A stretch of DNA of 64,000 nt, from NCBI RefSeq assembly GCF_024298765.1, contig NZ_CP101210.1, one strand, 5' to 3'. Both the position numbers and the translations under genes were made by a program. Below, piece by piece: positions 59,103 through 63,799 of the stretch. Position 1 is the first letter of the stretch. The number at the start of each line of letters is the position of its first letter. The stretch comes from Escherichia coli. GTDB lineage: Bacteria > Pseudomonadota > Gammaproteobacteria > Enterobacterales > Enterobacteriaceae. A model generated the notes under the pieces. It saw only the letters and a program-made list of their open reading frames with translations, did not search any database and was not told the origin of the DNA.

Positions 59103-59352
59103 GAATCACTGATCGTTATGTAAATATTTATATTACGATCGGTGCATAGGCAAAATTATGATCCAGATCACACGTGAATGTAAGTTATTTACAAATTACG
59201 CTAACCTTCTGTCTCCGCTCTTTGCAGCATAAAAGTATGGCGGCGCGTTGTTGAAAGCAGGAGCGGCCGGGTTGTCAGAAAGCTGGTTTGGACGCAAGTA
59301 ATATATAACAACTCTGATTACCGCATACTGTCAGGACAGTATCTACTTGAGC

Positions 59353-59418
59353 GTCCGCCTTTGGCACAGAGCGGACGATATCACTGAGCTGAAGGTCCGC
59401 TGAGAGCGAGGAGCGGAA
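59353..59418. repeat. hairpin repeat family, copies B1 and B2
   Basis: Two adjacent hairpins: GTCCGCC-TTTGGCACAGA-GCGGAC at 59353-59376 and GTCCGCT-GAGAGCGAGG-AGCGGAA at 59395-59418. Confidence 0.65.
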
Positions 59419-59584
59419 GTAAGCATGTATCTGCTAATGCGAAAAATCACTAACGAAACATTGGATCCCCATTGTTGCCGATCTTTAGTGGCGTTCAAGA
59501 TTAGCCCCAATCCTGATTATCATTTGATTACACTGACTGAAATGATATAAAACCTAATTATCTGATATTTGTAGGGGTTTAGTA

Positions 59585-60394
59585 ATGTCACTTCCTGTTC
59601 CTTTTGGTGCAATTGTTACAGTAGTGAAGAAATGCTGGTCTACTCTTACCCAGATAATGCTGATAAAAACTTATCAACTCTCACATGAGCGCTGGGCAGT
59701 GAGACACAGGCTAGGGGCGAGCTGGCATTCCTTAGGGAATTATTTGGAGTACAGTCTACGATTTGCTCAGTTGACAGATAAAGAACCTCGTTGTTCACGT
59801 ATTGCTTTCAGAAGCAAAGAGGAACGACTGCAACAAGTTGAACTTGTTTTTGAAGCCATTGGCAGTGGCTTACGCTACCAAGAAACACTATGCATTCATG
59901 ATGTAAATAACTCACCGATAATATTAACGCTTTCAAATATTCCTACACTTGATGTACTTATTCTAGATGATGGATTCGCATTTACGGTTGAACAGTACCA
60001 GTTAAAATATTGCACGATAAAATTAATGACTGGTGAAAGTATATCTATTGACAATTCGCCCAAATATTCGCTAATGCAAAACTGGTGTCTCAATGATACA
60101 TGGAAACGGCGTTGGGGTATCATCTGGAACTGTAATGCAATTGAATGTGCCCGAAGGCGTATTGCTGAATATTGGAAATGGGGCTTTTGTCTGCCGTTAG
60201 TGGGACGCCCCCCGTTATATTCACCATCGCGAAAAGGTATTCATCTGTTTGAAGCAAAACCGTTACGCTGGTTTATGACACGCCCATGGTGTCTGAATAT
60301 CCAGTTTTGGACGGCAATTTGGTCAGGACTGTTTATTCTCAGCGATGAGAATGTCTTGCAATGGCGCTGGAAAGAGCCACCACAACAAGACTAA
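59585..60394 (+). CDS. hypothetical protein, 269 aa, Trp-rich C-terminus
   Basis: Uninterrupted ORF bounded by hairpin repeats B and C. No family recognised. Confidence 0.45.
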   Translation: MSLPVPFGAIVTVVKKCWSTLTQIMLIKTYQLSHERWAVRHRLGASWHSLGNYLEYSLRFAQLTDKEPRCSRIAFRSKEERLQQVELVFEAIGSGLRYQETLCIHDVNNSPIILTLSNIPTLDVLILDDGFAFTVEQYQLKYCTIKLMTGESISIDNSPKYSLMQNWCLNDTWKRRWGIIWNCNAIECARRRIAEYWKWGFCLPLVGRPPLYSPSRKGIHLFEAKPLRWFMTRPWCLNIQFWTAIWSGLFILSDENVLQWRWKEPPQQD

Positions 60395-60408
60395 CTTTCA
60401 CGAAGGCC

Positions 60409-60432
60409 GTCCGCTCTGAGCGAGGAGCGGAC
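60409..60432. repeat. hairpin repeat family, copy C (GTCCGCTC-TGAGCGAGG-AGCGGAC)
   Basis: Perfect 8-bp stem located 15 bp after the stop of ORF 59585-60394. No downstream T-tract. Confidence 0.65.
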
Positions 60433-60511
60433 CTCAGTGCTGGTTAGATTAACTAGTCTAATTGTGACTACCTAATTTGAAACGATATAAAAATGGTATG
60501 ATACATGATCA

Positions 60512-61249: not shown

Positions 61250-61476
61250 AGTTCCTCTCTTTTTGTTTTTTAATTTTTTTGGAGTGTATCATGATTTCTC
61301 TCTTATTTTTTCAAAATTCTATTTATTTCTGAATGCAAAGTAAAACGCTGACATGCAAAAAAGTCATTCTTATTTAAGATTAAGTCAAAAATTTATCGAA
61401 AGACATTCTATTAATCTTACATGAATAGAGCAACGTCCGCATCTGGCACAGGACTGCTGTTGCAGCCCTGGCAACC

Positions 61477-62085
61477 TTAGACTTCAATCGATTCAGAGAT
61501 CTCTAACGCATCATCGACTTCAATGCCCAGATAACGGACTGTGCTTTCCAGTTTCTTATGGCCTAACAGAAGTTGGATCACCCTGAGATTCTTAGTTTTC
61601 TTGTAAATCAGGTAAGGTTTTGTTCTTCTCAAGGAATGTGTACTGTAAAGCGAATCTTCGAGACCAAGTTTTGCTACCCACCCATGAAAAATTCGGTTGT
61701 ATTGCCGGGTTGATATGTGTTGGTTAGTACCGACCCGAGATCGGAACAAATAGTCTTTACTGCGTAAATTGCCAAGCTTTATCAATGCAGAAACAGCTTC
61801 TCTTGTCCCTTTGGTTATCTCAAATTGGACAGGGCTGCCGGTTTTCTGTTGTAGAACCGTAGCTCTGCTTGAAACAGAGCTACCATATGCAACATCAGAT
61901 ACTTTGAGTTTGACTAGATCACAGCCTCGAAGCTTACTGTCCAAGGCCATGTTGAACAGAGCTAAATCGCGTGTTTTACCTTCCAGTTCAAGTCGGATTC
62001 GGATACCCCAGATATGAGATATCTGAAGTGGTCTTTTTTGGCCTATGATACGGTCTTTGTTCCACGGTGACGTGTTCATACTCAA
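61477..62085 (-). CDS. small tyrosine recombinase, catalytic domain only (FimB/FimE-sized)
   Basis: 202-aa ORF with tyrosine-recombinase catalytic signatures: HSLRRT (H-x-x-R), LLGH, and RY in TVRYLG. No N-terminal arm- or core-binding domain. Confidence 0.65.
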   Translation of the reverse strand: MSMNTSPWNKDRIIGQKRPLQISHIWGIRIRLELEGKTRDLALFNMALDSKLRGCDLVKLKVSDVAYGSSVSSRATVLQQKTGSPVQFEITKGTREAVSALIKLGNLRSKDYLFRSRVGTNQHISTRQYNRIFHGWVAKLGLEDSLYSTHSLRRTKPYLIYKKTKNLRVIQLLLGHKKLESTVRYLGIEVDDALEISESIEV

Positions 62086-62474
62086 ATCTCCTGCAATGTG
62101 GGAGATTTGAGTATGGTTGTCCTTATGAGCGAGGCGCGGAAGCTCACTTTAGGGCAATCTAATTCACATGTCAGAGGATTTATAAAAAGAGAATAGTGCA
62201 GATTTTAGGGATACTTACACTTGCTATGGCATACTTTTTGGGACCCCATCAGTTTAGGGATCTGAATCGCCACAGCTTTGGTAGGCACCTGCTTTATGGT
62301 CACGTGCACCCGAAGATCCTGCGGGTACGCATGGGTCACGAAAAGTACGAGTCTACAGAAGTTAATTTACGGTTTTTTGCGCTCGATGTGGCTGCCAGCT
62401 ACCAAGTCCAGTTTACACTGGATACAACTAACGCGCTGTAGCAACTGCGTGGTGGAAGCTGATTAAAGGAGATA

Positions 62475-63578
62475 ATGATGTTCGATGTTGACGATACTGC
62501 ACCCGATACTCCCGCCCCCCGTGAACTCAGTCAGGATGTGCAGGCGCTGATCAACAATGGTCTGGATTTTCTGGATAAAGCCCGTGAAGAGTTGGAGGCC
62601 TCGAAGCCGAAGTTCTCCGTCGTCAGTTTCTGGACTGCGGTCGAGATTTTACTGAAAGTTCCGCTGGCGCACGAACACTGGTCGTTGGTCTGCAGCCCGA
62701 AAAAGCCAATAAAAAAGCAGGCTTACCTAGCCGGTGATTTTCAGTCGGTGACCTACGAAGAAACCCGTGAAAGGCTTAAGGACGTACTTGAAAGACCCCT
62801 AGACAGAGAAACGGACAGTGCTTTTGATAAGGTCAGAAAGCACCGCAACCGCGTAGTTCATTTCTACCACCCCACTTTCACCGAGGCTGAACAACGTCAA
62901 ATACTCAAAGAACAAGCTGACGCCTGGTTTGCCCTGAACCGGTTATTAAGGGATGAATGGAAAGTTATCTTCGGTGTCAAACATAATTGGAAGCTGGCTT
63001 TCGGTGAAACTCGTCTGATTAGGGGAAACAAATTTTATGCCGAGGTGCGGTTTAAACAGGTTAAGCCTGAACTCGAGCAGCTCTCTGAAAAGAATATTCA
63101 AATCGGTAACTGCAATGAGTGCCATCAGCATGCGACGGTAACAGGGACTGAAACGACCGGTAATGAAAACCGTAAGCTTGAAGTTACGCGGTGTAAGGTT
63201 TGCACCAGTGCTGTAAGGCAAATTACCCTAGTTTGTCCAGACTGCGAAATACCTCAATTGCTACCTGAGGGAGATAGTGATTTTGAATGCGAACACTGCG
63301 ACTACACTTCGGATAGGTATAAACTGCTGGATGAGGAGTTGTTCCACAGTGTGGATGAACAGCTACTCTCCGTATTTCCTGCTGGATGTACCAATTGCAT
63401 GACTCCTGAAAGCGTATGTAAATTTGGAGACGGCTATCTTTGCACTCAGTGTTTCATCTATTACACCGAGCTTCATGTATGTGGTTGTTGCGGTCACCTG
63501 AGCGATAGCGTTCCTGAACTGAGCCATATCCGAGGATGTGAATTTTGTGATGGTGACCAACGTTATTTTGATGACTGA
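62475..63578 (+). CDS. hypothetical protein with HEPN-like R-x4-H motif and C-terminal multi-CxxC zinc-ribbon region
   Basis: 367-aa ORF with KHRNRVVHF (R-x4-H) in an alpha-helical N-terminal half, followed by at least 8 CxxC/CxxH pairs (CNECHQH, CKVC, CPDC, CEHC, CTNC, CTQC, CGCCGH, CEFC). Confidence 0.5.
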   Translation: MMFDVDDTAPDTPAPRELSQDVQALINNGLDFLDKAREELEASKPKFSVVSFWTAVEILLKVPLAHEHWSLVCSPKKPIKKQAYLAGDFQSVTYEETRERLKDVLERPLDRETDSAFDKVRKHRNRVVHFYHPTFTEAEQRQILKEQADAWFALNRLLRDEWKVIFGVKHNWKLAFGETRLIRGNKFYAEVRFKQVKPELEQLSEKNIQIGNCNECHQHATVTGTETTGNENRKLEVTRCKVCTSAVRQITLVCPDCEIPQLLPEGDSDFECEHCDYTSDRYKLLDEELFHSVDEQLLSVFPAGCTNCMTPESVCKFGDGYLCTQCFIYYTELHVCGCCGHLSDSVPELSHIRGCEFCDGDQRYFDD

Positions 63579-63618
63579 ATTACCATACATAATCTAGGCT
63601 CTTCAGGGATGGGTTGGA

Positions 63619-63646
63619 CAGTCCGCTCCTGGCACAGAGCGGACTG
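63619..63646. repeat. hairpin repeat family, copy D (CAGTCCGCTC-CTGGCACAG-AGCGGACTG)
   Basis: 10-bp stem located about 40 bp after the stop of ORF 62475-63578. Loop shares GGCACAGAGCGGAC with copy B1. Confidence 0.65.
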
Positions 63647-63799
63647 TCAGATTAGATTCAGACCTGTACTCATTAGCTGATACAAATCAGCCACATATAC
63701 CTGCATTCCAAATAATTTCAGGCAGATATTATCTCCGTGAATCCCCCCGCCACCTTTCCGGTGCGCGGGGTTTTGTCTTTTTTCACCGGGAATACATGT

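Follow-up and report, generated by a model that had tools for sequence, protein, structure and literature searches.

What are the related inverted repeats that punctuate the last part of a 64,000-nucleotide stretch of Escherichia coli DNA (contig NZ_CP101210.1 of RefSeq assembly GCF_024298765.1; this whole stretch is called the window below), and is the small tyrosine recombinase encoded among them the enzyme that acts on them? A first-pass annotation, made from the letters alone, had noticed at least five copies of an imperfect palindrome placed at boundaries between gene units, together with a 202-residue recombinase, and had likened the block to an attC-like cassette array or to an invertible or excisable module. 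Comparison with other genomes shows two kinds of recombination site among the repeats, here termed A and B, which most probably work as duplex core sites. The array in the window has the order A-iron operon-B-linker-A-ORF269-A-ETEC_3214-B'-[rec]-A'-HEC-08-B-backbone, in which rec is the recombinase gene, the primed letters are hybrid sites at its two ends, and the remaining names are those of the gene units (the coordinates of all features are collected in the table below). We call these gene units cargo, and the DNA between a B site and the next A site a connector.

Two kinds of site and the crossovers within their cores

The exact arrangement GTCCGCTC-N8-GAGCGGAC occurs in the window at 60409-60432 and 63621-63644, with 0 expected in shuffled sequences, and allowing up to three mismatches adds the copies at 53633, 59353 and 59395, for a total of 6 matches against 0.23 expected (the sixth, at 23921, is at chance level and its loop is unrelated). 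A core-based scan of window positions 1-53000 found no site. All five copies of the first-pass annotation exist, the one it gave at 63619 beginning at 63621, and every site copy in the window falls between gene units on the map of open reading frames (ORFs), as had been claimed. The suspected homology between the flanks of different copies is also present, in that the B-18 bp-A unit at 59353-59418 recurs in degenerate form at 53600-53655, with 77% identity over 56 nt.

Two types of loop are found: type A, TGAGCGAG, at 53633, 59395 and 60409, and type B, CTGGCACA, at 59353 and 63621, which is nearly the reverse complement of type A (92%). Two partial copies flank the rec gene, B' at 61435-61451 and A' at 62119-62142. 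Each site comprises 24 bp, namely 8-bp inverted arms (GTCCGCTC and GAGCGGAC), a 7-bp asymmetric core (TGAGCGA in A; TGGCACA in B, or TGTGCCA on the opposite strand) and one variable base. Read from connector to cargo, the consensus is GTCyGCTn-TGAGCGAg-nAGCGGAc for 92 distinct A sites and GTCCGCTc-TGTGCCAg-gAGCGGAC for 126 distinct B sites. The cores are discrete, as their counts attest: 91 TGTGCCA, 62 TGAGCGA, only 2 TGTGCGA hybrids and 0 TGAGCCA. Adjacent sites are paired as A..B 48 times, as B..B 13 times and as A..A 9 times. The shortest kind of connector, a mini-linker, has the same inner part GGCACAGAGCGGAC-GATATCACTGAGCTGAAG-GTCCGCTGAGAGCGA in 5 contexts but differing outer arms.

Crossovers were mapped by three-way alignments in three independent comparisons. 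Relative to strain SEC470 (locus L005), the rec and HEC-08 unit of the window is an insertion: SEC470 carries the uninterrupted site ...GTCCGCAT-CTGGCACAG-AGCGGAC-tgtcagatt, which was aligned also with the window site at 63621, and CTGGCACAG is the sole sequence common to the three junctions. The iron operon is missing in SEC470 and in locus L331, where the A site consists of the left half of the 53633 copy and the right half of the 59395 copy, the change from one to the other falling inside GAGCGA. The ST131 genome compared has a single chimeric B site directly after its iron operon and then the island backbone, a 4.2-kb block being missing, and this junction switches within TGGCACA(R)AGCGGAC. 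Three units (the iron operon; ORF269 with ETEC_3214; rec with HEC-08) are present or absent independently of one another, and all mapped unit breakpoints fall within an A or a B core. The left neighbour that a near-identical rec-HEC-08 unit (99.6-99.8% over the HEC-08 segment) meets at its B core also differs: it is ETEC_3214 in the window, whereas loci L003 and L004 have a dynamin cassette there. Past the right-hand B of these two loci, B-linker-A leads on to further cassettes, one locus having a 483-nt ORF and the other a reverse-transcriptase gene. These strain comparisons show that exchange at the sites is site-specific, that the crossovers lie in the 7-bp cores and that A and B are separate classes; inverted arms around an asymmetric overlap of 6-8 bp in which exchange takes place are the anatomy of lox, FRT and dif-type core sites. 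The cassette array of the first-pass annotation has thereby held up: gain and loss of blocks between strains lie exactly at the repeats, which do mark variable gene blocks across E. coli strains, the accessory genes in these blocks being often anti-phage.

Matches to an 81-nt composite query (window 59345-59425) occur in 1681 of 5426 complete E. coli genomes (762 genomes have at least 80% of the query), in 1-5 places each, so that the copy number of the sites is low, unlike that of repetitive extragenic palindromic (REP) elements. A and B sites also occur in one lambdoid prophage and in P2-like phages. In phage 899 the interval between the tail-fibre-assembly and sheath genes reads aatctgaca-A-cargo-B-linker-A-cargo-B-tgtcagatt, and the direction of the genes is not fixed, P2 fun reading from A to B and the phage 899 cargo from B to A. 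Phage P2 itself, of which bases 14500-33593 were scanned, has only two A/B sites, flanking fun(Z) (record position 15335, GTCCACTC-TGTGCCAA-AAGCGGAC; 17432 on the reverse strand, GTTTCCTT-TGAGCGAG-AAGCGGAA), and none at tin/old. A survey of 120 P2-type loci in IMG/VR, recognised by their right-hand end GCGGACTGTCAGATT, contained 40 distinct backbone-A-cargo-B-backbone arrays with at least 25 cargos of 0.7-3.1 kb. Their constant backbone parts are …aatctgaca-GTCTGCTT-TGAGCGA and TGGCACA-GAGCGGAC-tgtcagatt…; that is, the backbone arm and the first seven bases of the core are constant, and variation begins at the eighth base and takes in the arm on the cargo side and the cargo itself. The same B-TGTCAGATT end closes arrays in P2-like phages, in other CP4-like islands and in Providencia.

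In a scan for perfect arms, with one genome per species, 12 of at least 120 loci had A or B loops, and these were confined to Enterobacterales among the matches listed; the remaining 108 of those listed arose by chance or belong to unrelated repeats, such as those of Haloferula. The hosts other than E. coli in that list are Enterobacter, Lelliottia, Cedecea, Pantoea, Pluralibacter, Citrobacter and Superficieibacter, in which the sites separate ordinary accessory units (arsRBC, oxidoreductases, regulators). The P4 reference genome (L335) has no A/B site even by relaxed criteria. P2 carries sites only at Z/fun, and this difference, judged from a single genome of either kind, may be related to the reports that P2 and P4 do not exchange defence genes.

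The backbone flanks of the arrays form an inverted pair of their own, AATCTGACA … TGTCAGATT (window 63645-63670; L140 3542-3566 and 6772-6790; L015 ~2075-2099), which is conserved in P2-like phages, in E. coli CP4-like islands and in one Providencia island. The pair points to a longer backbone site or to one where an accessory protein binds.

The candidate recombinase and the proposed exchange

The sole Pfam match of rec is Phage_integrase, at residues 37-186 of 202, and the earlier description of a recombinase lacking an N-terminal DNA-binding domain proved apt: rec is a genuine catalytic-domain-only protein, physically tied to the sites. The first-pass annotation had allowed that it might be an inactive fragment of a larger integrase; that possibility falls away, as rec is of full length, its homologues are about 200 residues long and its catalytic hexad is intact. 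More than 8000 homologues were found at E < 1e-5, and among the matches listed they measure about 200 residues, save for a few partial or extended calls, and reach 76-96% identity across Enterobacterales, Idiomarina, Pseudoalteromonas and Cycloclasticus. Thirteen sequences, the most distant at 59% identity, all keep R53, K81, H150, R153, H176 and Y185. A search of the Protein Data Bank with a profile of the family found XerD residues 131-278 (the catalytic domain), and an AlphaFold2 model (predicted local distance difference test, pLDDT, 84) had its best Foldseek matches in the catalytic halves of XerA, XerH, IntI and Cre, with a query-normalised template-modelling score (TM-score) of ~0.7. 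Both the residue set (R-K-H-R-H/W-Y) and the predicted fold are those of an active tyrosine recombinase.

All E. coli contexts examined have rec flanked by a B site and an A site. The inner ends of its module are constant in ~20 enterobacterial loci with homologues of at least 85% identity (…TAAGGGAC-AACCATACTCAAATCTCCCACATTGCAGGAGATTTGAGT-ATG…TAA-GGTTGT-CAGGGCTG-CAACAG-CAGCCCTG-TGCCA), and its outer parts consist of the A core and a variable arm at the 5' side and of one variable base and a variable arm at the 3' side. Constant inner and variable outer ends argue that the rec module is a connector that has recombined with many partners. The 3' motif (hairpin, GGCCA or GTGCCA, GCGGA) is found as well in Providencia, in a marine gammaproteobacterial integrative element and in five of the six readable 3' flanks of homologues with 59-65% identity, with weaker traces in locus L161 and in the betaproteobacterial Cupriavidus plasmid pMOL30; in locus L160, with a 61%-identical homologue, there is a free-standing site with a matching CGGCCA core. 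Among the neighbours of rec in E. coli are HEC-08, a dGTPase, a CBS anti-phage protein, dynamin-like genes, a reverse transcriptase, type I restriction-modification and DarTG; elsewhere it borders arsenic, copper or catabolic modules.

Paired elements lie on both sides of the gene. The strong hairpin that directly follows the rec stop codon and precedes the B core (61449-61470; L158, L160, L162) is made of CAGGGCTG/CAGCCCTG in enterics (at least 20 loci) and of TAGCGACGG/CCGTCGCTA in the 60%-identical clade, its structure being kept and its sequence changed; it might serve as a terminator, mimic an arm or regulate the site. Direct reading of the leaders revealed an inverted repeat over the rec Shine-Dalgarno sequence (62085-62107; AAATCTCC-N9-GGAGATTT), whose pairing is kept with different sequences, for example AATTAAATCTC…GGAGATTTAATT and GTCCTTCC…GGAGGAC (L012, L154, L157, L158, L160, L161). 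By analogy, this leader repeat looks like the translational occlusion of transposase genes against read-through transcription.

From this arrangement we favour, with some reserve, the view that rec, encoded between B' and A', catalyses the exchange at A and B sites, in cis or in trans. The DNA alternates between cargo segments, which have their own outer arms and are bounded by A at one side and by B at the other, and connector segments, which lie between a B and the next A and are phage or island backbone, the 45-bp mini-linker or the ~730-bp rec module. A dimer of rec would bind the arms of duplex DNA and swap strands across the core by the ordinary Holliday-junction route, as do Cre, FLP and Xer. 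Two positions distinguish the cores, which would therefore be mutually incompatible, A recombining with A only and B with B only. Exchange of either kind between direct repeats would delete a unit, presumably as a circle, and the reverse reaction would insert one, the rec-A'-HEC-08-B unit being such an insertion at a B site; double exchange (A x A and B x B) between two replicons would swap the cargo and leave both backbones intact. We put forward more tentatively that this may be a previously unrecognised, general system of cassette exchange in enterobacteria, perhaps in Proteobacteria more widely, in which minimal recombinases work on two heterospecific 24-bp sites. Its cargo would then comprise anti-phage, metal-resistance and iron-uptake genes, and its replicons phages, islands, plasmids and chromosomes.

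A number of results weigh against this view. Neither the unoccupied phage site CTGACAGTCCGC-N12-26-GCGGACTGTCAG in IMG/VR nor the junction that a circle or a tandem of the rec-HEC-08 unit would form (such as ...GGACAGTCCGCTCCTGGCACAGGACTGCTG...) in the complete E. coli genomes (0 of 5426) was found. The inner arms of the rec module match the consensus at only 4-5 of 8 positions, and rec lacks a core-binding domain, yet the arms that it would have to recognise measure only 8-9 bp. By megablast rec is present in 862 of the 5426 E. coli genomes, as against 1681 with a composite match; it is found in 0 of the 120 P2-type loci, and most arrays have no rec nearby, so that it would have to act in trans, and rarely. 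At homologues on alphaproteobacterial plasmids (50-59% identity) the flanking motifs are unrecognisable. Absence in cis from most arrays, fewer genomes than the composite sites and degenerate inner arms would all suit another explanation, in which the sites are real, a different enzyme acts on them, and rec is a passenger or a selfish mini-element that targets them for its own insertion; so would the members of the rec family that stand beside metal-resistance or catabolic modules in Alpha- and Betaproteobacteria, where A/B-type sites were not found. We consider this unlikely, however, as no other recombinase is consistently linked with the sites, which are unlike Xer, integron or P2/P4 att cores, whereas rec lies precisely between B and A cores in every enterobacterial context examined and its flanking non-coding motifs (core and arm) are conserved over ~40% protein divergence.

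The remaining alternatives concern the nature of the repeats. They might recombine as folded single-stranded hairpins, in the manner of attC, with the same rec and with the product resolved by replication: the sites are palindromic, a constant unpaired C beside the B core is reminiscent of an extrahelical base, and the conserved hairpin abutting the B core 3' of rec differs in sequence among clades. Folding divides the copies: as a single strand with its flanks, the 63621 copy reaches -14.5 kcal/mol (z = -5.3), but other window copies fold no better than shuffles (z = -0.65 and -1.3). The complementarity of the arms, moreover, equals the shuffled expectation (5.44 complementary positions against 5.44 after re-pairing in 63 distinct A arm pairs; 5.83 against 5.94 in 72 distinct B arm pairs), and many natural sites pair at only 5-6 of 8 positions. 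Arms without covariation give no sign of selection for a folded hairpin; as far as the sequences tell, both arms simply fit one consensus, which is the anatomy of a duplex core site and not of a structure-dependent attC. A GTTRRRY-type attC signature is absent at the crossover points, and rec, without an integron-integrase signature, scores 15.9 bits on TIGR02249 against a curated cut-off of 265. Recombination of folded strands is very improbable, and the attC-like reading offered at first finds no support; nor does that of an invertible module, since there is no inverted same-core pair among about 80 adjacent site pairs. Least probable of all, in our judgement, is that the repeats are structural or regulatory elements (REP-like, RNA-stability hairpins or terminators) and that the strain differences arose by homologous or microhomology recombination. 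Their intergenic positions, often directly after stop codons, would fit, as would the copies that follow ordinary accessory operons (arsRBC, glycerate kinase) in Lelliottia, Pluralibacter and Cedecea, but the low copy number per E. coli genome, the two discrete cores with their strict A…B grammar, the crossovers within 6-9 bp (far below the length of RecA-dependent exchange) and the more than 25 unrelated cargos at one phage locus speak against it. The repeats are not terminators, for none of the copies has a T-tract after it and cargo genes can point either way with respect to A/B, as in P2 fun and phage 899; sites are present at the 5' and 3' ends of cargo genes alike. In this the first-pass annotation had judged well, as it had in separating the low-copy repeats from REP elements and bacterial interspersed mosaic elements (BIME), the REP-type elements of the window (Rfam naRNA4, ~24.3 and 27.2 kb) differing from them in sequence. 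With no T-tract, low copy number and no inverted same-core pair, the identities of terminator, REP element and invertible switch were rejected.

Island context, cargo and neighbouring features

The stretch is 100% identical to that of E. coli ATCC 25922 and is also found in CFT073. It lies within a CP4-like island, which further downstream encodes a YeeP-type GTPase, dynamin, patatin, Ag43, an antirestriction protein, RadC and CbtA.

Table. Features of the cassette array, with positions in the window
Feature	Position	Strand	Description or basis
Degenerate B half, linker and A site	53600-53656	+	A = 53633-53656, GTCCGTTG-TGAGCGAA-CAGCGGAC; left boundary of the iron-operon unit
Cargo unit 1: TonB-dependent receptor and ABC iron-uptake operon	54096-59102	-	ORFs, RefSeq annotation
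Composite junction (mini-connector)	59353-59418	+	B 59353-59376, 18-bp linker GATATCACTGAGCTGAAG, A 59395-59418
Cargo ORF269, without recognisable family	59585-60394	+	ORF list
Perfect A site	60409-60432	+	GTCCGCTC-TGAGCGAG-GAGCGGAC
Cargo: ETEC_3214-domain protein	60512-61249	-	NCBIfam NF043066, E 2e-53
B' hybrid site	61435-61451	+	Cargo-side arm GTCCGCAT, C, core TGGCACA; the rec module replaces the right arm
Conserved hairpin	61449-61470	-	CAGGGCTG-N6-CAGYCCTG, between rec stop codon and B core
rec, 202-aa catalytic-domain-only tyrosine recombinase	61477-62085	-	Pfam Phage_integrase
rec leader	62085-62142	-	Inverted repeat over Shine-Dalgarno 62085-62107, conserved CAACCATA motif, A' site
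A' hybrid site	62119-62142	-	Inner arm GTCCTTA, core TGAGCGA, outer arm GCGCGGAA
Possible tyrosine recombinase C-terminus remnant	62196-62441	+	Weak Pfam Phage_integrase match
Cargo HEC-08, HEPN (DUF3644) and zinc-ribbon anti-phage protein	62475-63578	+	PADLOC PDLC04162, E 1e-173
Perfect B site and conserved backbone flank	63621-63660	+	B = 63621-63644; flank TGTCAGATTAGATTC

The HEPN/zinc-ribbon protein of the first-pass annotation is HEC-08 of PADLOC (E 1e-173). In the identical stretch of ATCC 25922 its ORF is annotated in RefSeq as WP_001313577.1, an accession that stands in the HEC-08 row of a supplementary table of Payne et al. 2024; HEC-08 was found there to be anti-phage, and its HEPN-motif mutant H128 did not defend. 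A tblastn search of a phage collection gave no match to HEC-08. One E. coli genome has an IS21-family element (istA/istB; L327, 4967-6936) between rec and HEC-08, so that the unit is open to disruption by ordinary insertion sequences. An 81-codon ORF at 62196-62441, which travels with the HEC-08 cargo, resembles the C-terminus of a different tyrosine recombinase (…HSFGRHLL…GH…), the match being a weak one (Pfam Phage_integrase model positions 133-163, E 0.038).

As to the two proteins first taken as unknown, ORF269 remains without a family, with no match in Pfam, NCBIfam, PADLOC or PHROGs, and that at 60512-61249 carries an ETEC_3214 domain (NF043066). ORF269 and the convergent ETEC_3214 gene (59585-61249) move together, with an A site between them, in a defence-rich array, and from this position they could be an uncharacterised defence pair. 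The iron-uptake operon acts as a 5.8-kb cassette (53633-59418), so that the cargo does not consist of defence genes only. An all-against-all blastn comparison of 13 cargos with the collected loci found shared cargos only in near-identical contexts, and no shuttling between unrelated backbones was seen.

ARAGORN called a tRNA-Gly(GCC) within ORF269 (59824-59898, minus strand), which Rfam did not report at the gathering threshold and which is probably a false positive. Elsewhere in the window there are a tRNA-Thr(CGU) at 10301-10376 and three Rfam naRNA4 (REP/BIME-derived) matches, at 24254-24430 and 27185-27262 (minus strand), whose sequence is unrelated to the A/B sites.

Relation to known systems

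A 2004 paper in Mol Biol Evol by Nilsson, Karlsson and Haggård-Ljungquist is reported to describe inverted repeats flanking fun(Z) in P2-like coliphages. The A/B sites that flank fun(Z) in P2 are almost certainly these repeats, as far as a secondary citation can tell: PMC8987985 cites Nilsson et al. 2004 for inverted repeats that flank P2 fun(Z) and for a proposed site-specific exchange with enterobacterial chromosomes. In the passages of the citing literature that deal with the P2 fun repeats, no recombinase, A/B grammar or connector-cargo structure is named, and no extension to CP4-like islands, lambdoid prophages or other Enterobacterales is made. Studies of P2/P4 hotspots from 2022 and 2026 and a 2024 study of embedded defence genes do not mention the repeats or a dedicated recombinase, and full-text literature searches with the site sequence and on small recombinases and defence cassettes returned nothing relevant. 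The repeats as such are not new, and site-specific cassette systems are known, the present one having been partly anticipated in 2004, to judge from that citation. The first-pass annotation did not recognise a described system here; this is too strong for the repeats, given the 2004 proposal for P2 fun(Z), and stands for the enzyme and the two-core grammar, of which no description was found in those sources.

A 2026 preprint on the P2/P4 hotspots leaves the recombination process open. The locus offers parts that can be tested, namely two short site types with mapped cores, a grammar that predicts exchange and a candidate enzyme of 200 residues, and through them the open question of how genes are swapped at defence hotspots becomes directly accessible to simple experiment. 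If the proposal is true, there would be a second natural cassette system beside integrons, which would explain the same defence gene in unrelated mobile elements; cassette boundaries could be called from sequence, which would aid the discovery of new defence genes; and a compact recombinase with a heterospecific site pair might serve genome engineering. The general system, if it exists, would be the missing mechanism behind the fast turnover at defence hotspots such as P2 Z/fun, and could explain why hotspots without sites, such as that of the P4 reference genome, do not exchange with them.

Integrons share with this locus gene-cassette arrays, imperfect palindromes, a tyrosine recombinase and possible anti-phage cargo. 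They differ in their attI/Pc platform with co-oriented cassettes, which is not present here: rec has cargo on both sides, in either orientation and with its own promoters. Their attC sites measure 57-141 bp and are folded, whereas the sites here are 24-bp core sites without selection for folding. Here, unlike in integrons, each cassette has two heterospecific site types, and the arrays lie inside phages and islands.

The pdif modules of Acinetobacter plasmids are similar in being discrete accessory modules with short, oppositely oriented sites on many replicons, but pdif uses the host XerCD and neighbouring modules share one site, whereas the candidate enzyme here is element-encoded and catalytic-domain-only and the modules are parted by B-connector-A. 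The dif consensus is GGTGCGCATAA-N6-TTATGTTAAAT. The arms and cores of the sites share nothing with this consensus, and the sites are likewise unlike the usual consensus sequences of cer and psi. FimB and FimE are, like rec, tyrosine recombinases of ~200 residues without an N-terminal core-binding domain; rec does not belong with them by score (25.4 bits against 222 for PRK09871; 18.2 against 221 for PRK09870), and their invertible segment has no counterpart here, there being no inverted same-core pair.

By analogy the system works most like engineered recombinase-mediated cassette exchange (RMCE), in which Cre or FLP acts on heterospecific lox or FRT sites. Both have identical arms with incompatible spacers, and in both a double crossover would swap the cassette and leave the backbone undisturbed. 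RMCE is a laboratory design, whereas the arrangement at this locus, as we infer it from sequence comparison, is a natural one.

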